Notes: generated by a model from the sequence alone, not told the origin. Numbered from the stretch's first letter, positions 4,862 to 45,859 are shown. The stretch: DNA of 45,859 nucleotides from a virus (IMGVR_UViG_2718218168_000002); one strand, 5' to 3'. Made by a program: numbers and translations.

Positions 4862-5449
4862 TCAGAAAGGAGGGTAATCGTTCTGGCTGTAACCATAATC
4901 ATCTGCATGATTCTGGATTACGTTTTTAGAGCGATTGTCTTTATCTTTGAGACTGGCAACCATGTTGGCGATAGTTTCTGGTTGCTTGCCTTCCGCCTTT
5001 TCTTTAAGGGTTTGACCAGTTTGTGCAATAAACGGGATGCGTATTTCCATCTGGTAGCTGTCTGCGCCAGTCTTTTTGTTTGTGGTTAATACTTTCTGGA
5101 GCACCAACCCGATTTTCTTTCCATGAAATTCAGGTGCAACAAATTTACTGACGGAAATCATATGTTGCGTTAACTGCCCAATCCCGGCACACCCCATCAT
5201 GGCGTGAACGACATTTGCGCCAAATTTGTTTTCCGTTCCGTCATTTTTCTGAACGCAGACGCTAAGATATTGGATTTTACGTCCGTCGTCGGATTCGCCA
5301 GAAAACTCAATAAATTTGGCTCCTTTTTCTGATTGCTTTAGTTCTGCTTCAGTAATGGTAATGATATGAGCGCCAGTTTCGTTAATAAAACCACCTTGCC
5401 CTGCTGTCAGTGCTGCTTCTTCGTTATAAGTAAAAATCACGTTGCTCAT
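4862..5449 (-). CDS. DUF669-like ssDNA-binding protein with SSB-like acidic C-terminal tip
   Basis: 195-aa ORF ending in DYPPF (compare the SSB DDDIPF tip); overlaps the upstream ATPase gene by 4 nt, the usual Sak4/DUF669 pairing. Confidence 0.5.
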   Translation of the reverse strand: MSNVIFTYNEEAALTAGQGGFINETGAHIITITEAELKQSEKGAKFIEFSGESDDGRKIQYLSVCVQKNDGTENKFGANVVHAMMGCAGIGQLTQHMISVSKFVAPEFHGKKIGLVLQKVLTTNKKTGADSYQMEIRIPFIAQTGQTLKEKAEGKQPETIANMVASLKDKDNRSKNVIQNHADDYGYSQNDYPPF

Positions 5450-6126
5450 GCGGCGTTTTCCTTAATTTGATGAACATTATTGATGCCGTAGTAATCACAA
5501 ACAGTGGCATCGACAAAAGAGAGATCGTTATCAATCTCATTGGAATCAAACATTCCCATTGGGGATTTAACAGTGTCTGCACCGTTGTTTTTCGTGGTGA
5601 AAAAGAACTGGTCATCACGGGTAAGGGTGCGAAGAACTATAGTAAACATGCCTTCGACAGTGATTTTCTCGTCCAGCATTTTGCCGATAGTTTTCATTTT
5701 CACGCGCCCCATAGGGGTTTCTTCTGTGTGCGCAAGAAAATAGACTCTCAGGTCATCAGGTGCATCCTGTGCAGCCTTAATCACCTCCCATGCGTGGCGG
5801 CCTATCTCAGTAAATTTATCAAACGATTTTTCTTCTGAGCGGCGCATAAACTCATTGCTCATCACATACTGGAAGTCATCAACAATAACGATTCTTTTCC
5901 CGTATTCGTGAGCACGCTTAATTACGGCAACTATTACGTCCCATTTGTCAGTGGTAACTACGGTTCCTTTTTTTGCTCTGGCATCCCATGCCAGCCATTC
6001 TTTTGATTTAAAAGGTAGCGGCTTGCCTATTGGTTTTATAAGTATTGCTTCCTCTGGATTGATATTTCTCATGCTGGTTGATTTTCCGGTGCCAGATTCA
6101 CCGAGTATTAATGTCGCAGTTCCCAT
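5446..6126 (-). CDS. Sak4-like AAA_24 ATPase (phage recombination)
   Basis: 226-aa ORF with N-terminal Walker A GESGTGKST and a Walker B-like IVIVDD; occupies the position of lambda Red. Confidence 0.6.
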   Translation of the reverse strand: MGTATLILGESGTGKSTSMRNINPEEAILIKPIGKPLPFKSKEWLAWDARAKKGTVVTTDKWDVIVAVIKRAHEYGKRIVIVDDFQYVMSNEFMRRSEEKSFDKFTEIGRHAWEVIKAAQDAPDDLRVYFLAHTEETPMGRVKMKTIGKMLDEKITVEGMFTIVLRTLTRDDQFFFTTKNNGADTVKSPMGMFDSNEIDNDLSFVDATVCDYYGINNVHQIKENAA

Positions 6127-6433: not shown

Positions 6434-6566
6434 TTTTGGGAACTCCTGGCTGATTAAGTACGTCGATGAGTCGTTTCCATCCGTCACGTAATTTGCGGGT
6501 GATTCGTTCAAGTAAAGATTCGGAAGGGCAGCCAGCAACAGGCCACCCTGCAATGGCATATTGCAT
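6426..6566 (-). CDS. cIII: CIII-like protease inhibitor
   Basis: 46-aa ORF below the track cutoff: MQYAIAGWPVAGCPSESLLERITRKLRDGWKRLIDVLNQPGVPKNG, matching recalled lambda CIII; AAGGAG Shine-Dalgarno upstream. Confidence 0.65.
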   Translation of the reverse strand: MQYAIAGWPVAGCPSESLLERITRKLRDGWKRLIDVLNQPGVPKNG

Positions 6567-6645
6567 GGTGTGCTCCTTATTTATACATAACGAAAACGCC
6601 TCAAGTGAAGCGTTATTGGTATGCGGTAAAGCCGCGCTCAGGCGG

Positions 6646-13580: not shown

Positions 13581-13613
13581 AGGCCTGCTGGTAATCGCAG
13601 GCCTTTTTATTTG
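13581..13613 (+). terminator. Rho-independent terminator after the primase-helicase gene
   Basis: Stem aggcctgc/gcaggcct with an 8-nt loop, followed by ttttatttg. Confidence 0.6.
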
Positions 13614-13627
13614 GGGGAGAGGGAAGT

Positions 13628-13954
13628 GTGGCTGACTGGCAAATTCCAATCATCATTCTTGCCGGAGCTTCGCTGGTTGCTGGCTTTATCCTGCTGAAAA
13701 AGCATAAAGACCGTGATCAAAAAGTCGAAGTTCTCTATGGGTATCCAGCGAACAGCACAACATGGCTGACCATTTACCACTACCGAAAATCAGGCCGTTG
13801 GGTATTCGAATGGGATGATCTGTTCGCTGAAAAGCGACCAAAGTCATGGGGAGACATCAGCGAATGCATGATGTTTGAAGAAAGAAAATCCGGCGCAACC
13901 CGAGAAGAGTTTAACGAAGCGTGGAGGCGATTAAGTGAGAGGGGGTATCAATGA
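13628..13954 (+). CDS. Hypothetical protein with N-terminal transmembrane segment
   Basis: 108-aa ORF with a GTG start after GGGAGAGGG; hydrophobic N-terminus IPIIILAGASLVAGFILL. Confidence 0.4.
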   Translation: MADWQIPIIILAGASLVAGFILLKKHKDRDQKVEVLYGYPANSTTWLTIYHYRKSGRWVFEWDDLFAEKRPKSWGDISECMMFEERKSGATREEFNEAWRRLSERGYQ

Positions 13955-13976
13955 GCAGAATTAAGTCGAGGTAACA

Positions 13977-14423
13977 ATGAAGCAAATATACATGCTTCGC
14001 AACGAAGCAATCAGAAATAACGCCATAGACGCAATACTCTCACTTCCGATCGACGACAAGTCACCTCACGAAGTCCACATTAAAGAACCCAAGCGGAGCA
14101 ATCCTCAAAACCGCCTTATGTGGGCGTTATTGCAGGACGTATCACGTCAGGTGCTTTGGCATGGACAGAGACTTGCGCCGGAGGACTGGAAAGACCTGTT
14201 TACTGCCCTGTGGCTTAAGACCAAAAAACTGGAGCAACGAAGTGTGCCTGGTATCGACGGTGGCGTTGTCATGCTTGGCGTGCGTACCAGCAAAATGCGA
14301 AAGGCCAGCATGACTGAGCTTATCGAAATCATGTTTTGGTTCGGCTCAGAGCGCAACGTGCGGTGGAGTGATGACTCCCGGCGAGAGTATGAATGGTCAC
14401 AACGAAAAGGGAAGGCTGCATGA
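13977..14423 (+). CDS. ninB: NinB (Orf-family recombination protein)
   Basis: 148-aa ORF; NPQNRLMWALLQDVSRQVLWHG and the C-terminal RNVRWSDDSRREYEW match the recalled lambda NinB pattern. Confidence 0.75.
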   Translation: MKQIYMLRNEAIRNNAIDAILSLPIDDKSPHEVHIKEPKRSNPQNRLMWALLQDVSRQVLWHGQRLAPEDWKDLFTALWLKTKKLEQRSVPGIDGGVVMLGVRTSKMRKASMTELIEIMFWFGSERNVRWSDDSRREYEWSQRKGKAA

Positions 14424-14947
14424 CTATCAAATCAAATACGCCAGCGTCAGATAGGTATCGGCTTATTGAGGATTATCTGTATTTAGACGGAGATACAGTC
14501 AGATACAAAAAGGACTCGCTAAAACACCCCAACCACAGCCACCGGGCAGGAGATGAAATTAAAACATCGATAAATGGATCTGGGTATAGACAGGTGTGTT
14601 TTGCAGGCATTCAGATGTTTGTTCACGTAGTTGTTTTTGCGCTGCACAACAAAAGAATGCCATTGAAAAATATTGACCATATTAACGGGAACAGGCTGGA
14701 CAATTCCCCAAAAAATCTTAGGGAGGCAGGCCGGATAGCAAACAGCCGAAATCAGAAAACTAAGTGCAATAGCCGTTCTGGAATAAAAAATGTTTTATGG
14801 AACAAGCAAAAAAATAAATGGGCCGTTCAAGTGCGCACAGATTTTGGCCGGTTGTATTTTGGGCTCTATGAAGATCTTGAACTTGCTTGTTTGGTTGCCA
14901 GTGAGGCTATCAACAAATATCACGGACAATATGCGAAGGTTGTATGA
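14420..14947 (+). CDS. HNH endonuclease with AP2-like DNA-binding domain
   Basis: Internal ATG (MTIKSN) of track ORF 14393..14947; HNH motif HVVVFALHNKRMPLKNIDHINGNRLDNSPKNL; overlaps the ninB stop by 4 nt. Confidence 0.65.
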   Translation: MTIKSNTPASDRYRLIEDYLYLDGDTVRYKKDSLKHPNHSHRAGDEIKTSINGSGYRQVCFAGIQMFVHVVVFALHNKRMPLKNIDHINGNRLDNSPKNLREAGRIANSRNQKTKCNSRSGIKNVLWNKQKNKWAVQVRTDFGRLYFGLYEDLELACLVASEAINKYHGQYAKVV

Positions 14948-15474
14948 TTAAGCATAAATCAGAAACACCAAAAGAAGTTAGAGACTGCTGGCAAACACCG
15001 CTTTGGCTTTTTGATGCACTGGATATTGAGTTTGGATTCTGGCTGGATTCGGCAGCGAGCGACAAAAATGCTCTGTGTGCTCACTGGCTAACTGAGGCCG
15101 ACGACGCGCTCAATTCTGAGTGGGTAAGCCACGGTGCAATCTGGAATAACCCACCGTACAGCAATATCAGGCCGTGGGTGGAAAAAGCCGCTGAGCAGTG
15201 CATACAACAGCGACAGACGGTAGTGATGCTTGTGCCAGAGGATATGTCAGTCGGATGGTTCAGCAAGGCTCTGGAGAGTGTTGACGAAGTTCGTATTATC
15301 ACTGATGGACGGATTAATTTTATCGAACCATCGACAGGGCTGGAGAAGAAGGGAAACAGCAAAGGCTCCATGCTGCTGATTTGGCGACCGTTCATCAGTC
15401 CTCGACGGATGTTTACTACCGTATCCAAAGCGGCATTGATAGCGATCGGGCAGGGCGTCAGGAGGGCTGCATGA
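14944..15474 (+). CDS. Phage Dam-family DNA N6-adenine methyltransferase
   Basis: 176-aa ORF with the catalytic NPPY motif (WNNPPYS); ATGA start/stop overlap with the HNH gene. Confidence 0.7.
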   Translation: MIKHKSETPKEVRDCWQTPLWLFDALDIEFGFWLDSAASDKNALCAHWLTEADDALNSEWVSHGAIWNNPPYSNIRPWVEKAAEQCIQQRQTVVMLVPEDMSVGWFSKALESVDEVRIITDGRINFIEPSTGLEKKGNSKGSMLLIWRPFISPRRMFTTVSKAALIAIGQGVRRAA

Positions 15475-16316
15475 TAAATGTCGTTAGTTTCTCCGGTGGC
15501 AGGACGTCAGCATATTTGCTCTGGCTAATGGAGCAAAAGCGACAGGCAGGTGAAGACGTGCATTACGTTTTCATGGATACAGGGGCAGAGCACCCTAAAA
15601 CATATGAGTTCATCCGAAATATCGTCAGTAACTGGAAAATAGACTTACATTGCCTTCGTGTAATACCTAATCCAGAAATGGGGAAGGCCAGTAGTTATGA
15701 AGAGATAGGTGTCAATGATATTGGTCCAGATCTTATACCGTGGAAAAGGATGTTAAATAAATACGGACATCCATATATCGGCGGTGCGTTCTGTACCGAC
15801 AGAATGAAGTCTGTTCCATTCACCAAATATTGTCAGGAAAAGTTTGGGAAAGGAAATTACATCACATGGCTTGGCATTCGCACAGATGAACCAAACAGGC
15901 TTAAAAGGGCTAATGGTTTTCGGTACCTGGCTGATATAAGCGATTTTGAAAAACAGGATGTGCTTGATTGGTGGAGTGGGCAGAAGTTTGATCTTGGCAT
16001 ACAGGAGCATCTTGGTAATTGTGTTTTCTGTATAAAAAAAAGTATGCAAAAGGTTGCGCTGGCAGCCATGGATGAGCCAGAACTTGCAGATGCATTTATC
16101 AACATCCTTGATACAGAAATAAAAACAGGAAAGGAACCGGTTATGTATCGAGGGAATAATACACTTAAATCACTGATTGCCTTGTTTAGTGATATATCAA
16201 GAGATGAGTTAGCCTCAAGAATGACATCAATGCGACAGTATGATTCAGGTTCGTGTTCTGAATCATGTGAAGCATTTTCATGTCAGCTTGGATTTAATTT
16301 TGAGGATGCGGCATGA
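15471..16316 (+). CDS. PAPS-reductase-like PP-loop ATPase family protein
   Basis: Internal ATG after AGGAGG; PP-loop motif [12 protein letters not shown]; C-terminal Cys clusters; 4-nt overlap with the methyltransferase gene. Confidence 0.65.
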
Positions 16317-16495
16317 GACGACAGCGACGAAGCATCACCGACATAATCTGCGAAAACTGCAAATACCTTCCAACGAAACGCTCCAGAAATAAACGCAAGC
16401 CAATCCCAAAAGAATCTGACGTAAAAACCTTCAACTACACGGCTCACCTGTGGGATATCCGGTGGTTAAGACATCGTGCGAGGAATACAAGGTGA
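16313..16495 (+). CDS. ninE: NinE-like protein
   Basis: 60-aa [32 protein letters not shown]..., recalled as lambda NinE; start overlaps the upstream stop. Confidence 0.55.
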
Positions 16496-16586
16496 TTGAC
16501 GCGATGATTTATTCGGGGCTATATTCCCAGCACGCCAGCAAAATCTGGCGTCGGGATTGGAACCCCGGATAGAGACCGCGACAAAC

Positions 16587-16610
16587 ACACGCCGCGAGCG
16601 TGTTTTTTAT
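16587..16610 (+). terminator. Rho-independent terminator upstream of the ORF6N moron
   Basis: Stem acacgc/gcgtgt with loop cgcga, followed by tttttatt. Confidence 0.5.
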
Positions 16611-16769
16611 TGTCGTATGCACGCGCACATCTGAATTATGGTGGGGCGCATGGGGGAGCTGAAAAGCTCGCCGGTCGGTTTCCCGGTAGTTCCAACCCTG
16701 TGCGTCTCACCACCCGATGATTGGAACCTGACGGTGGTGATAGTTTAGAAACCACCAGAGGGCGTCATT

Positions 16770-17450
16770 ATGACAACTCAAATTTCTGTTGAAACTCTCT
16801 CCCCGATCACCCATAACCAGATTCCTGTTATTACCACCGAACTTTTGGCGCAGCTTTACGGCACTGAGCCGGTGCGTATTCGCCAGAATCATCATGAGAA
16901 CAAAGTACGCTTCGTTGAAGGGATACACTTTTTCAAAGTTGTTGGTAATGACCTTAAAGAATTGCGGGTAGCTTTAAACTACTCACAAAATCCCATCTCT
17001 CCCAAAGCCCGCTCCCTCATCCTCTGGACAGAACGAGGCGCAGCACGCCACGCCAAAATGCTCGAAACCGATCAGGCGTGGGAAGTGTTCGAAAAACTGG
17101 AAGACTGCTATTTCAGCCAGTGCGAGAAAAATACAGGTAAACAAGAGAAGAGCACCAACAAGCTTTCCGCAAAAGAAGCAAACAGCCTTGTATGGTTATG
17201 GGATTATGCTAACCGCTCACAGGCATTATTCCGCGAATTGTATCCAGCGCTAAAGCAAATTCAGTCTAACTATTCCGGCAGATGCTACGACTACGGTCAT
17301 GAGTTCTCGTATGTTATTGGAATGGCGAGAGACGTTTTAATCAATCACACACGAGATGTTGATATCAATGAGCCAGACGGACCAACGAATCTTTCCGCAT
17401 GGTTAAGGCTTAAGAACAAAGAATTACCTCCTTCACTGCATCGCTACTGA
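16770..17450 (+). CDS. ORF6N-domain antirepressor-like protein
   Basis: 226-aa ORF; N-terminal pattern [11 protein letters not shown]...[10 protein letters not shown]...[36 protein letters not shown] typical of the ORF6N domain; C-terminal half unassigned. Confidence 0.6.
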
Positions 17451-17518: not shown

Positions 17519-18247
17519 ATGACAATGAACGAGCTGATAAATAGCAATGTCATCAAAATGACTAGCATTGAAATCGCTGAGCTTACAGGTAAGCGTCATG
17601 ACAATGTGAAACGTACCATCGAAACGCTGGCTAAAAATGGTGTTATCCGGCTTCCTCAAATTGAGGTTTCCGAAAGAATCAATAACTTAGGGTTCAATGT
17701 TCAGTACGAGCATTACGTCTTCGAGGGCGAACAAGGTAAGCGAGACAGTATTGTCGTTGTTGCCCAGTTGTCGCCGGAATTCACGGCTCGCCTTGTTGAC
17801 CGTTGGCGAGAGCTTGAAGAAACTGCGGTTAATATCCCCAAAACGCTACCGGAAGCGTTGCGCCTTGCTGCTGACCTTGCTGAGCAGAAAATGCAACTGG
17901 AAAACCAGCTCGCAATTGCCGCACCTAAAGTTGAGTTTGCCGATCGCGTTGGCGAGGCCAGCGGAATTTTGATTGGAAACTTTGCAAAGGTTGTTGGTAT
18001 TGGTCCAAACAAACTGTTTGCGTGGATGCGCGATCACAAAATCCTTATTGCTTCAGGTTCCCGGCGCAATGTGCCAATGCAGGAATATATGGATCGCGGC
18101 TATTTCACAGTGAAAGAAACAGCGGTCAACACAAATCACGGAATACAGATATCGTTCACCACAAAAATCACCGGGCGTGGTCAACAGTGGCTGACCAGAA
18201 AGCTGCTCGATAACGGAATGCTGAAAGTAACAGGGGAGGCTGCTTAA
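17519..18247 (+). CDS. Rha/Ant-family phage antirepressor
   Basis: 242-aa ORF; N-terminal Rha-like segment (MTSIEIAELTGKRHDNVKRTIETL) and a C-terminal AntA/AntB-like region; GAGAGG before the ATG. Confidence 0.65.
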   Translation: MTMNELINSNVIKMTSIEIAELTGKRHDNVKRTIETLAKNGVIRLPQIEVSERINNLGFNVQYEHYVFEGEQGKRDSIVVVAQLSPEFTARLVDRWRELEETAVNIPKTLPEALRLAADLAEQKMQLENQLAIAAPKVEFADRVGEASGILIGNFAKVVGIGPNKLFAWMRDHKILIASGSRRNVPMQEYMDRGYFTVKETAVNTNHGIQISFTTKITGRGQQWLTRKLLDNGMLKVTGEAA

Positions 18248-41702: not shown

Positions 41703-42535
41703 TGGCGAAAAATGACTTTAAAGCGTTTGCAACTGATCGAAATGCCAATGTTATGTCGCAGGAAGAATGGGAAGCGTTGCCTGCGCTTATATCCGGATTT
41801 ACAGCAGGGAAAGCATCCAGTGCGCAAGTCAATAAGGTTATTCGGCAGGCCAGCTTTATTGCTGCAGCTCTGGCCCAGTTTGTAAGTGATAAAACGCAAC
41901 GGGATGTGCTTGATAATGGTGATCTGCCCGGTTTTGTTGAATTGCTGGGATCGGGGTTTGCTGTTGAATACCTGAGCCGCAAGAATCCGTTTGGTGATAT
42001 CAAATCGGATGGCACGGTGAAAACGGCTCTCGAAAACCTTGGTTTGGGAGAAGGCTCTGCATTACCGGTTGGGGTGCCTGTTCCGTGGCCTTCAGCCACT
42101 CCGCCGACAGGCTGGCTGAAATGCAATGGTGCGGCTTTTTCTGCTGAAGAATACCCGGAACTGGCAAAGGCTTACCCGACCAATAAATTGCCTGATTTAC
42201 GTGGTGAGTTTATTCGTGGCTGGGATGATGAACGTGGTGTGGATAGTGGGCGAACTCTGCTTTCATCGCAAGGAGATGCTATTCGAAACATTACTGGCGG
42301 TTTTGGTCAGTTGCGCGTAAACAGCGAAATTAATGCAATTGTCGATGTTCAAAGTGTGAGTGGGGCTTTTTACGGAGGTACCTCAGTCCGGAATAACATC
42401 AATGTGTCTATGACATACGCTAATGACCGAAAAATCCGACAAGATGTTCACTTCTCGGCGGCAAATGTTGTTCCAACAGCAAATGAAAATCGTCCACGTA
42501 ACATCGCCTTTAATTATATTGTGAGGGCTGCATGA
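41702..42535 (+). CDS. Tail fiber protein with tail-collar motif
   Basis: Internal ATG overlapping the upstream stop; conserved collar-like segment [52 protein letters not shown]. Confidence 0.7.
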
Positions 42536-43457: not shown

Positions 43458-44615
43458 TCACTCCACCTTTTCATCAATCCAGTCCGCCCACCACTGCATC
43501 ATTTCTCTGCGCTTATCTAGATACTGAGCATGGTTGTAAATACCGCGCACAGATCCGCCGTTGGCATGTGCCAGTTGCACCTCAATCGCGTCAGCAGGCC
43601 ATTCGTGCTCGTTCATAATCGTGCTAAATTCATGCCTGAATCCGTGACCGCTTTCCAGACCCTCATAGCCGATTTGTTTGATCACAAGTAGAACCGCGTT
43701 CTCGCAGATTGGCTTCTTCTTATCGTTGCGCCCGGCAAAAACAAACTCTGATACTGGTTTGGTGATGGAGCTTAGCGTAGTGAGAAGTTCAACCACCTGG
43801 TCTGACATCGGGACCACATGAATTTTGCGTCCCTTCATCACACTGGCGTCGATGGTGATAATCCTGTTTTCAAAATCGACGTTCTTCCATAGCATGGAAC
43901 GAAGCTCTTTCGTTCTTAGGGCTGTGTAGCGTAAAACTTTGGTCGCAATGAGCGATACGATACTTCCTGAAAATGTTGCCAGTGCTTTGTTGAATGCCGG
44001 GATCTGGTCTGCAGGAAGAAACGGGAAGTTCTTCTTGCGGTATCCCTTCATGGCGTCTGCAAGGTCAGGTGCCGGGTTGTATTTAGCCCTTCCGGTGACA
44101 ATAGCGTAACGGAAAACTTCGCCGCATCTTCTGCGGGCTTTGTTGGCTCGCTCCATTGCACCGCGATCTTCAAATCTGCGGATTACTTCCAGCAGTTGCA
44201 TCGGCTCAATATCCTGAATTTCAAGGCTGCCGATGATAGGTAAAATGTCGTCATCAAACATTTTTGCAAGTTCATTTGCATAGCCTACTGACCAGACTTG
44301 CTTCTTGTGCTCGTACCATTCCTTGTAAATGGCGCTAAAGGAATTGTTGTTAGACGAAGCCTTTTTCGCTTTTACCGGATCGATGCCAACCGAGATGTCT
44401 TTCCTAGCGGTCCATGCTTTATCCCTTGCCTCCTGCAAAGTCATAAGCGGATATTTTCCGACGGTCAGGATTTTCTCTTTACCGTCAATCTTGTAGCGAA
44501 GCTGCCATACCTTTTTCCCGGATACAGGAACATAAAGGTACAGGCCATTACCATCGAGAAGGCGGTATGGTTTTTCTTTCGGCTTTGCTGCTTCAATCTG
44601 CTTAACGGTGAGCAT
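43458..44615 (-). CDS. intS: Tyrosine integrase (P4/KplE1 IntS type)
   Basis: Start placed at MLTVKQIEAAKPKEKPYRL (track ORF extends to 44651); C-terminal catalytic region HGFRHEF...HANGGSVRGIYNHAQY; adjacent to argW. Confidence 0.85.
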   Translation of the reverse strand: MLTVKQIEAAKPKEKPYRLLDGNGLYLYVPVSGKKVWQLRYKIDGKEKILTVGKYPLMTLQEARDKAWTARKDISVGIDPVKAKKASSNNNSFSAIYKEWYEHKKQVWSVGYANELAKMFDDDILPIIGSLEIQDIEPMQLLEVIRRFEDRGAMERANKARRRCGEVFRYAIVTGRAKYNPAPDLADAMKGYRKKNFPFLPADQIPAFNKALATFSGSIVSLIATKVLRYTALRTKELRSMLWKNVDFENRIITIDASVMKGRKIHVVPMSDQVVELLTTLSSITKPVSEFVFAGRNDKKKPICENAVLLVIKQIGYEGLESGHGFRHEFSTIMNEHEWPADAIEVQLAHANGGSVRGIYNHAQYLDKRREMMQWWADWIDEKVE

Positions 44616-44775
44616 GGGTAAAAATCCGGTGGGTAAAATTATTTTATCCACTTTTTACCCGTCATGGAGTGCGGCTGTCAACGATCTGACGCGAACCATG
44701 ACGAACCGTGAATATACGGAAGGCTTGATATTCAGGGGATTTTGCGGACTGGTACGGATGGGAGCGAACTGATAA

Positions 44776-44851
44776 ATGGTGTCCCCTGCAGGAATCGAAC
44801 CTGCAATTAGCCCTTAGGAGGGGCTCGTTATATCCATTTAACTAAGAGGAC
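44776..44851 (-). tRNA. argW: tRNA-Arg (anticodon CCU)
   Basis: Minus-strand cloverleaf: acceptor GTCCTCT/AGGGGAC, D stem GTTA/TAAC, anticodon stem AGCCC/GGGCT with loop CTCCTAA, T arm GCAGG-TTCGATT-CCTGC, discriminator A, CCA. Confidence 0.9.
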
Positions 44852-44926: not shown

Positions 44927-45859
44927 TTATGCTGGGTTTTTATCATTTTTCTTAATGTTTTCCGCACGTTCTGCTTTTTGGCGTGCTTCTGCTTTACGCT
45001 TGTTGCTCATGTCGTTACGAATCTGTGCATGACTCATTAACGCGAAGATAAAGGTGCCGCCGCAGATGTTCCCCGCTAAAGTAGGTAGTGCGAAGGGCCA
45101 GATGAAATCGCTCCAGTGCAGCGTGCCGTTAAACACCAGATAGAGGATTTCAACAGAACCGACAACGATGTGGGTGGTGTCACCCAGTGCAATAAGCCAG
45201 GTCATCAATATAATCACCACAATCTTTGCCGCACCCGCAGCAGGAAACATCCAAACCATAGTGGCGATCAGCCAGCCGGAAATGATCGCGTTGGCAAACA
45301 TCTCGCTGGGGGTGTTCTTCATCACATCCATGCCGATTTTGACAAATGCATCGCGAGTTTCTTCATTGAAGATAGGCATATATTCAAATGCCCATGCAGC
45401 AATACCTGTCCCGAGAATATTACCCAGCAGCACGACGCCCCATAATCGCATAAGTAAGCCGACGTTGCTCATTGTCGGTTTTTGCATGACGGGTAGTACC
45501 GCAGTCACGGTGTTTTCGGTAAATAATTGCTGGCGGGCCATAATGACGATAATAAAACCAAAGGTATAACCGAGATTCTCCAGTAAGAAGCTGCCTGGCA
45601 CTCCTTCCAGTTCGACATGAAATATCCCTTTTGCCAGTAGCGAAGCGCCCATCGACAGACCCGCCGCAATGGCTGACCACAGTAGCGCCATTGCGTCGCG
45701 TTCCAGCTCTTTTTCACCATCCTGGCGGATATGCTCATGAATTGCCATCGCCCGGGAGGGGAGTCGATCTTCATCTATTTCTATTTTTTTGCCGCGCTCT
45801 TTTTCTTCGCTCTCAACTTCAATTTCGTCGCTGTGTTGATCAATTTTGTCGTTGTCCAT
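44927..45859 (-). CDS. yfdC: Formate/nitrite-transporter-family inner membrane protein YfdC
   Basis: 310-aa ORF starting exactly at the window end; multi-TM with acidic N-terminus MDNDKIDQHSDEIEVESEEKERG; recalled as the K-12 neighbour of argW. Confidence 0.75.
   Translation of the reverse strand: MDNDKIDQHSDEIEVESEEKERGKKIEIDEDRLPSRAMAIHEHIRQDGEKELERDAMALLWSAIAAGLSMGASLLAKGIFHVELEGVPGSFLLENLGYTFGFIIVIMARQQLFTENTVTAVLPVMQKPTMSNVGLLMRLWGVVLLGNILGTGIAAWAFEYMPIFNEETRDAFVKIGMDVMKNTPSEMFANAIISGWLIATMVWMFPAAGAAKIVVIILMTWLIALGDTTHIVVGSVEILYLVFNGTLHWSDFIWPFALPTLAGNICGGTFIFALMSHAQIRNDMSNKRKAEARQKAERAENIKKNDKNPA

Follow-up and report, generated by a model that had tools for sequence, protein, structure and literature searches.

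Here we describe three genes of a lambdoid prophage carried on IMGVR_UViG_2718218168_000002, a stretch of viral DNA of 45,859 nucleotides (the window; all positions refer to the + strand of the whole stretch). The genes stand head-to-tail on the + strand, and both the list of open reading frames (ORFs) and the raw sequence place them at 14420-14947 (an HNH endonuclease gene), 14944-15474 (dam) and 15471-16316 (ninC). Dam is an orphan N6-adenine DNA methyltransferase of phage type, and NinC is a cysteine-rich PP-loop protein of the phosphoadenosine phosphosulfate (PAPS) reductase family and a candidate partner of Dam. As judged by homology, the best explanation of the Dam-NinC pair is that the two proteins are the separate halves of a two-domain module widespread in phages, in which a PAPS-reductase-like domain goes together with an adenine methyltransferase. 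The HNH gene has the pattern expected of a selfish homing-endonuclease cassette with co-converted flanks, and would lie outside that module.

Dam, NinC and their fusions

A preliminary description of this DNA had named the three products as an HNH-AP2 endonuclease, an NPPY adenine methyltransferase and a PP-loop protein of the PAPS-reductase family with cysteine clusters, encoded by genes that overlap by four nucleotides at 14944-14947 and 15471-15474. The overlaps are exact in the sequence, and profile search bears out the three identities (PF13392, PF05869/TIGR01712 and PF01507, all above cutoff), save for the AP2 domain discussed below.

Dam (14944..15474, +) scores 220 bits against PF05869 (cutoff 28.1), spanning positions 1-167 of the 169 in the profile, and 262.3 bits against the TIGR01712 equivalog (cutoff 97.05). 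Its catalytic motif IV, NPPY, lies at residues 69-72 (15148..15159, +). The protein is 97% identical to the Dam of phage VT2-Sakai, whose enzyme, M.EcoVT2Dam, is reported to target GATC (PMC6602927), and by this identity the Dam of the window is very probably GATC-specific as well. A sequence search of the PDB with Dam gave chance matches only.

NinC (15471..16316, +) scores 35.0 bits against PF01507 (PAPS_reduct; cutoff 22.5) and has the PP-loop alpha/beta fold. It belongs to the families phrog_33262 (E 4e-112, residues 1-273) and phrog_424 (E 1.4e-72). GenBank records name the matching gene NinC, and its place is between ninB and ninE, here with dam and the HNH gene interposed. The PP-loop, S6-F-S-G-G-R-T-S13 (SFSGGRTS; 15486..15509, +), is a variant of SGGxDS. 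In an alignment of 33 homologues, S6, S8, G9, G10, R11 and S13 are invariant and T12 nearly so, and the DTG motif is conserved too. There are four core cysteines, C108 (FCTDRMK), C121 and the pair C184xxC187 (GNCVFCIKK), spread over 15792..16031 (+), and two more, C262xxxC266 (GSCSESCE; 16254..16268, +), in a flexible C-terminal tail. All six are conserved in the 33 homologues, in 30 fusions of NinC to Dam and in the lambda-type allele. The core cysteines are candidate ligands of a metal or an Fe-S centre. In predicted models the tail (residues 259-281) has a predicted local distance difference test (pLDDT) score below 50, and in the fusions it starts a disordered linker between the domains.

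The preliminary description had allowed that the PP-loop protein might prove to be a sulfate-assimilation enzyme. Judged by its profile scores, NinC is not an assimilatory reductase, because the equivalog cutoffs for CysH (PRK02090; 18.7 bits, cutoff 154) and for adenosine phosphosulfate (APS) reductase (TIGR02055; 16.6 bits, cutoff 235.3) are missed by a wide margin. The catalytic cysteine at the C-terminus of CysH lies in an ECGLH motif; this motif is absent from the sequence of the NinC C-terminus. By the same kind of comparison NinC is best classed as a distinct family within the PAPS-reductase clade. In the PADLOC library, which has no curated cutoffs, it matches SspD (E 2.6e-14, 51.6 bits), BrxP (6.6e-8) and DndC (5e-4), over residues 4-144 only. 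The best matches among solved structures are APS/PAPS reductases and tRNA thiolases (NcsA, TtuA), and a fold search of BFVD returned only phage entries named 'PAPS reductase' and QueC. A weak sequence match in the PDB, 21fy_C 'PptA' (E 0.4), was set aside; it is absent from the fold searches, and no relevant paper on it was found. NinC of the window is 58% identical to a lambda-type allele of 290 residues (L040): the first ~35 residues are identical, and the rest is ~55% identical. The break in identity after residues 1-35 (15471-15575) indicates an intragenic recombination joint inside ninC.

The association of NinC with methyltransferases was followed at 80 IMG/VR loci with NinC relatives. 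Dam (PF05869) lies immediately upstream with an overlap, as in the window, at 10 of these loci, and the two domains form a single ORF, a NinC-Dam fusion of 477-579 residues, at another 17. Dam is found directly downstream of NinC once, and a fusion of NinC to D12 (PF02086) once; at two loci an MT-A70 gene follows NinC directly and shares an ATGA overlap with it. When redundancy is controlled by clustering NinC at 90% identity, 13 of the 25 clusters have a fused or abutting adenine methyltransferase. In one NinC allele group (L016-L018), the same slot 3′ of NinC holds MT-A70 or PF05869 Dam.

Single ORFs join NinC domains to DNA amino-methyltransferases of four families (PF05869, PF02086, PF05063 and PF01555), in both orders. 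Representatives at 50% identity include the orders NinC-Dam and Dam-NinC as well as NinC-D12; two of them (P0122 and P0124) have the Dam-NinC order, which is the gene order of the window. With a Vibrio phage fusion (described below) as the query, PF01507+PF05869 was found in 43 of the best 120 clusters, and among the same clusters are PF01507+PF01555 (N6_N4_Mtase) and MT-A70 fused in both orders. The sources of these clusters are prophages of Serratia, Yersinia, Pectobacterium, Klebsiella, Salmonella, Morganella, Shewanella and others. In 30 NinC-Dam fusions the catalytic residues of both domains (the PP-loop, the six cysteines and NPPY) are invariant. Such coupling to four unrelated methyltransferase families goes beyond the one fusion described in the literature searched.

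At the genome level, 50,697 phage records were searched, with 539 matches to the NinC half of the fusion, 2151 to the Dam half and 2288 to the whole fusion. About 402 of the 539 NinC records also carry PF05869 Dam, against about 23 expected from a base rate of 4.2%, a derived co-occurrence of ~17-fold that bears out the pairing, the count being inflated by many near-identical Vibrio phage genomes.

Some further proteins deserve mention. A metagenomic representative of 492 residues (P0127) has a NinC domain followed by a C-terminal domain of ~200 residues with ISNPPFD. No Pfam methyltransferase family is above threshold in that C-terminal domain, which may, on the strength of the motif, be a fifth methyltransferase-like partner family. 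Gp22 of Salmonella phage SPN19 (NC_019417.1, L081 2953-3639), annotated as phosphoadenosine phosphosulfate reductase, is Dam only (PF05869, 104.7 bits, no PF01507), and its annotation was probably carried over from NinC-Dam fusion proteins. Proteins of 366 residues upstream of some fusions and of SPN19 gp22 were considered as a third partner and rejected; they are not homologous to each other.

The HNH cassette and the mosaic nin region

The HNH gene (14420..14947, +) encodes a free-standing homing endonuclease of the HNH_3 type and lies as a cassette within the 5′ end of dam. Its product matches PF13392 with 39.2 bits (cutoff 24.8) and phrog_99 (E 2.8e-42), and by Pfam coordinates the catalytic motif region covers residues 67-108 (14618..14743, +; ...IDHINGNRLDNSPKNLR). 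Its sole PADLOC match is 'homing endonuclease'. Of the earlier name, HNH-AP2, the HNH part stands and the AP2 part does not: the likeness to AP2 was by eye only, and Pfam (E<=1), NCBIfam and a PDB sequence search found no AP2 domain.

The cassette is present or absent among closely related loci. Positions 14427-14934 of the window are missing from one locus (L057), where ninB directly abuts dam. Positions 14446-14982 are replaced by 10 nucleotides in three others (L001, L008 and L011) and are present in L006. The first nine HNH codons (MTIKSNTPA) are the N-terminus of the HNH-less dam allele of L001 and L008 (MTIKSNTPAHDKDCWQTP...), and dam restarts 3′ of the cassette with a second N-terminal allele (MIKHKSETPKEVRDCWQTP...). 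The HNH-less alleles of the dam 5′ end include a MTIKSNTPAHDK type and a MIKHKSETPKEVR type. Since the HNH ORF begins with the first nine codons of dam and dam restarts after it, the cassette therefore lies inside the 5′ end of dam and uses the original start of that gene. Divergent HNH copies are found in other slots of the nin region in related loci, and an HNH domain is present in none of the cases of NinC fused or adjacent to a methyltransferase.

The genes of the locus are joined by ATGA stop/start overlaps. At 14944-14947 the HNH stop overlaps the dam start, and at 15471-15474 the dam stop overlaps the ninC start, the latter two ORFs being in different frames. A Shine-Dalgarno-like run lies within the upstream gene in each case, GAAGG ahead of dam and AGGAGG ahead of ninC. 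The starts at 14420 and 15471 are favoured over the mechanical starts at 14393 and 15381, and the N-termini of homologues agree with the former. No slippery heptamer for a -1 frameshift that would fuse Dam to NinC was seen by eye at the ATGA joint. Identical joints are found on both flanks, at ninB/HNH (14420-14423) and ninC/ninE (16313-16316), and four-base gene overlaps are common across the whole window. The coupling is therefore a trait of the nin region rather than the signature of a three-gene unit.

These results bear out the earlier reading of a three-gene operon only in part. Among related loci the HNH gene comes and goes as a cassette within the 5′ end of dam. The same ATGA joints occur in the ninB-dam-ninE arrangement of VT2-Sakai, which is without ninC. 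Nor is the trio obligate: the locus is part of the mosaic delayed-early nin region of a lambdoid prophage, in which the arrangement is ninB-ninC-ninE in P22-like phages, ninB-dam-ninE in Shiga toxin (Stx) phages such as VT2-Sakai, ninB-HNH-dam-ninE in many E. coli genomes, and ninB-dam-ninC-ninE in CFSAN061770 and phage vB_SosS_Oslo. At one IMG/VR locus (L006), HNH-dam-ninC-ninE is found at 97.9% identity but with a different ninB in front. Neither among phage records nor among complete E. coli genomes is there one that covers at least 80% of 13900-16600. Every gene of the locus is already annotated in public records and the locus is otherwise ordinary; the dam-ninC arrangement is already present in described phages (vB_SosS_Oslo), and its fused form has a published anti-Dnd phenotype.

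Of the motif at the joints, GCNGCATGA, the window has 9 copies where 2.7 are expected, and one of 100 shuffles reached 9. In the form GC(N)GCATGA it encodes Ala-Ala-stop overlapping Met, and five copies are at gene junctions: 14415-14423, 15466-15474, 16308-16316 and 42527-42535 on the + strand and 5446-5454 on the - strand. Many NinC and fusion homologues likewise end in ...AA. The motif may provide microhomology for the exchange of nin cassettes, and the ATGA overlaps of the five consecutive genes from ninB to ninE could double as joints for cassette swapping among lambdoid phages.

Upstream of the three genes stands ninB (13977..14423, +; PF05772, 165 bits), which encodes an Orf-family recombination mediator and whose stop overlaps the HNH start. 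Downstream stands ninE (16313..16495, +; PF05322, 146 bits), whose start overlaps the ninC stop. Terminator-like hairpins flank the block of these genes. The upstream one (13581..13604, +), found by consensus scan and made of 8 pairs (6 GC) followed by a T-run, lies 5′ of orf108-ninB-HNH-dam-ninC-ninE. The other (16587..16603, +), found by the same scan, directly follows ninE within an Rfam match to the small RNA isrK. An ORF between the upstream hairpin and ninB (13628-13954, +) encodes 108 residues with a hydrophobic N-terminus and no Pfam match, and has the position of lambda ren.

Further downstream of ninE are antirepressors, YbcO, RusA and Q, and upstream are a CI-type repressor and a primase-helicase. 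Rfam matches after ninE (16519-16717, +) comprise c4-a1b1 targets, the Hfq-binding small RNA isrK (78 bits) and C4 antisense RNA (71 bits). Two antirepressor-type genes come next on the + strand, at 16770-17450 (ORF6N+P22_AR_C) and 17519-18247 (Rha+KilAC). The whole looks like a c4-ant immunity module of the kind found in P1/P7 immI, embedded in the nin region after ninE. A full-length lambda cIII thermoregulator RNA element (RF01804, 88.5 bits) is present at 6521-6579 (-).

The window holds a complete lambdoid prophage. Its left boundary is a LacY-family symporter gene (1-1248, +), and its right boundary consists, on the - strand, of a tyrosine integrase gene (43458-44651), tRNA-Arg(CCT) (44777-44851) and a gene of the formate/nitrite-transporter family (44927-45859). 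A whole prophage of ~43 kb thus appears to be integrated at the tRNA-Arg gene inside the window.

A putative DNA-directed module

The closest characterised relative of the pair is p0018 of Vibrio phage 44E38.1, a protein of 479 residues described as a 'Dam methyltransferase with PAPS reductase domain' (bioRxiv 10.1101/2021.05.05.442762). Piel et al. transferred p0018 along with its neighbour p0019 to a sister phage that has a 96% identical Dam but no PAPS domain, and the recombinant was then able to grow on a Dnd-carrying host (bioRxiv 10.1101/2021.05.05.442762). NinC of the window is 62% identical to the PAPS domain of p0018 over 278 residues (E 6e-121) and keeps the PP-loop and all the conserved cysteines; Dam of the window is 37% identical to the Dam domain over 180 residues (E 6e-32). 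With fusions to four methyltransferase families in both orders and this genetic implication of the closest relative in Dnd escape, the proposed link of the methyltransferase and PP-loop proteins to DNA modification or anti-restriction appears to hold. No later work on the PAPS-Dam fusion turned up in the literature searched. Another published candidate, 'anti-Dnd JSS1_004', was rejected, being a kinase/shutoff protein of the T7 gp0.7 kind with no relationship to NinC. The second transferred gene, p0019 (L082 1908-2498), carries DUF6475 (37.5 bits); no counterpart was seen beside dam-ninC of the window.

Other published findings are in keeping with this link. In Dnd, Ssp and BREX type 4 the enzyme that inserts sulfur is a protein with a PAPS-reductase domain, and in BREX type 4 such proteins stand in place of the methyltransferase and make phosphorothioate (PMC12914056, PMC12839542). 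G6mATC can replace GpsATC in protection from DndFGH (PMC6435447). A 2026 survey counts phage PAPS reductases among anti-defence candidates (PMC13551039).

That the two proteins work as a functionally coupled, DNA-directed anti-restriction module we regard as an even call, and phosphorothioation as the specific chemistry of the module is a tentative proposal and on balance a doubtful one. By analogy, our best guess is that NinC has a DndC/SspD-like activity, in which ATP and sulfur would be used for DNA marking or anti-restriction. Dam and NinC would both act on replicating phage DNA, with Dam recognizing and methylating GATC. NinC would be recruited to the same DNA through association with Dam, or with host Dam where the phage has ninC alone. 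Nearly all the listed hosts are Dam+ gammaproteobacteria; that host Dam substitutes in these cases is speculation. NinC could then activate a phosphate or sulfate oxygen by ATP-dependent adenylyl transfer, a reaction shared by CysD and FAD synthetase and proposed for DndC. Sulfur would next be transferred from the Cys tail or the metal (Fe-S) centre of NinC, in the way suggested for DndC/SspD. This would yield an added mark, most likely phosphorothioate beside the methylated adenine, or some other neutralization of phosphorothioate-sensing restriction, and the phage DNA would thereby be read as 'self'.

A more general proposal is that NinC-type proteins, lambda NinC included, are a minimal DNA-marking enzyme that makes use of adenine methyltransferases, be they phage-encoded, fused or the Dam of the host, and adds a second mark at or beside the methylated sites. 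We hold this to be unlikely. If true, the second mark could be either phosphorothioate made without the DndD/SspC ATPase (a fifth, minimal phosphorothioate system) or a new adenine adduct, and either mark would defeat modification-sensing defences.

Several points weigh against a coupled module or against its proposed chemistry. In the Vibrio experiment p0019 was co-transferred and no chemistry was identified (bioRxiv 10.1101/2021.05.05.442762). In published work phosphorothioate was not seen in the absence of an NTPase partner (PMC12914056), and no DndD/SspC-type ATPase (or BrxC) and no DndE/SspB partner was found near ninC, which is surrounded by ninB, HNH, dam, ninE and antirepressors. The match to DndC, SspD and BrxP is confined to the N-terminal ~140 residues of NinC, and the loop of DndC is SGGKDS (PMC6435447), whereas that of NinC is SGGRTS. 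An AlphaFold2 model of a natural NinC-Dam fusion has two good domains, a disordered linker of 40 residues and a predicted template modelling score (pTM) of 0.56, with no predicted fixed interface between the domains, a result that neither supports nor excludes an interface. Lambda- and P22-type phages have ninC without a phage methyltransferase, so that coupling is not obligatory, and lambda ninC, annotated as a PAPS reductase family protein, is non-essential in the laboratory. The association is also asymmetric, most phage Dam genes being without NinC, and the co-occurrence count carries the inflation from Vibrio phages noted above.

In a rival reading dam and ninC are independent neighbours, unrelated cassettes in one exchangeable slot between ninB and ninE, with NinC working alone and Dam serving as a plain anti-restriction or regulatory GATC methylase. 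The locus is mosaic and its four partial arrangements all exist, the full arrangement occurs in no complete E. coli genome at the coverage given above, and at 43 of the 80 NinC loci no adenine methyltransferase lies within 4 kb. The same NinC allele, moreover, is found at 99-100% identity with and without Dam (L003, L005 and L010 vs. L001, L004 and L006). A slot effect, however, cannot account for fusions to four methyltransferase families in both orders and beyond lambdoid phages, nor for the ~17-fold co-occurrence in genomes, and we consider independence improbable, though it deserves serious weight. It is far harder to defend the HNH gene as the nuclease arm of a true three-gene unit, of which Dam and NinC would be the modification arm in a restriction-modification-like or anti-restriction system. 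The tight ATGA coupling of all three genes and their identical arrangement in L006 speak for such a unit. But the HNH gene is an indel among near-identical loci and carries the first nine codons of dam, so that it interrupts dam and is no partner to it; its divergent copies in other nin-region slots, its single PADLOC match and its absence from the fused and adjacent cases point the same way, and the idea is scarcely credible.

Two other readings retain NinC as an enzyme with a different substrate. NinC could adenylate a carboxylate or another group (cf. TilS, QueC and the t6A pathway) and put it on N6 of an adenine flipped out by the methyltransferase, the product being a non-methyl adenine adduct with no change of the backbone. 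Against such hypermodification, PF01507, the top PADLOC match (SspD) and the cysteine conservation indicate sulfate or phosphate and sulfur chemistry, and the methyltransferase domain, NPPY included, is intact throughout, as for ordinary methyl transfer. We know of no unusual base reported in lambda DNA. Hypermodification is thus distinctly unlikely. NinC could also have no link to DNA, being a CysH-like gene of sulfur assimilation or a tRNA thiolase or modifier that aids phage translation. The PHROGs category of the family is 'moron, auxiliary metabolic gene and host takeover', and the best solved structures are, as said, reductases and tRNA thiolases. The missed CysH and APS-reductase cutoffs, a C-terminal motif (GSCSESCE) other than that of CysH, and the recurrent fusion to DNA methyltransferases, which argues for a DNA substrate, make a metabolic or RNA-directed role very unlikely.

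The gene merits attention on several grounds. ninC is among the last lambda genes without an assigned function, and phage 'PAPS reductase' genes are widely annotated as metabolic. The pattern of fusion and coupling, together with one genetic report of Dnd escape, makes ninC a concrete and inexpensive target for experiments in the best phage genetic system available. A DNA-marking NinC would be a phage counter-measure to phosphorothioate-based immunity and possibly part of a new pathway of DNA modification. Should NinC leave DNA unmarked, the methyltransferase fusions would still need explaining.

Comparison with known systems

The HNH cassette resembles the free-standing HNH homing endonucleases of phages (HNH_3, phrog_99) in its motif, its small size and its presence/absence polymorphism at a fixed site. 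It also shares with them insertion in the 5′ end of another gene together with a replacement N-terminal coding segment. Dam is of a kind with M.EcoVT2Dam and phage T1 Dam (PF05869, TIGR01712), sharing NPPY, the place after ninB and the ATGA joints. In VT2-Sakai, unlike in the window, dam is followed by ninE, with no ninC and no HNH insertion, and the first 13 residues of Dam are a different N-terminal allele.

NinC belongs with lambda NinC (Nin290) and the NinC of P22-like phages, which are of the same family (phrog_33262/424) and occupy the same place between ninB and ninE; in lambda and the P22-like phages no phage dam adjoins ninC. The assimilatory APS/PAPS reductases (CysH; PDB 2goy, 1sur and 6vpu) are more distant. 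Over ~157-180 residues they superpose on NinC with 18-20% identity, and they differ from it by the missed equivalog cutoffs and by another C-terminal Cys motif.

Among the phosphorothioate systems, DndC, SspD and BrxP have the PP-loop PAPS-reductase fold and are Cys-rich like NinC, SspD being its best match in the defence library. NinC is much shorter than DndC or BrxP. BrxP combines a PAPS-reductase domain with a DNA-binding module in one fused protein and stands in place of a methyltransferase (PMC12914056, PMC12839542); by analogy, a methyltransferase may be the stand-in for a DNA-binding partner of NinC. The nearest likeness is to p0018 of 44E38.1. The anti-Dnd phenotype was seen in the Vibrio phage only and with a second gene co-transferred. 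The Vibrio protein is one polypeptide in the order PAPS-Dam, whereas the window has two genes in the order dam-ninC with an ATGA overlap. The two have the same two domains, and both lie in a lambdoid-style early region, that of the Vibrio phage near ninG/rap.

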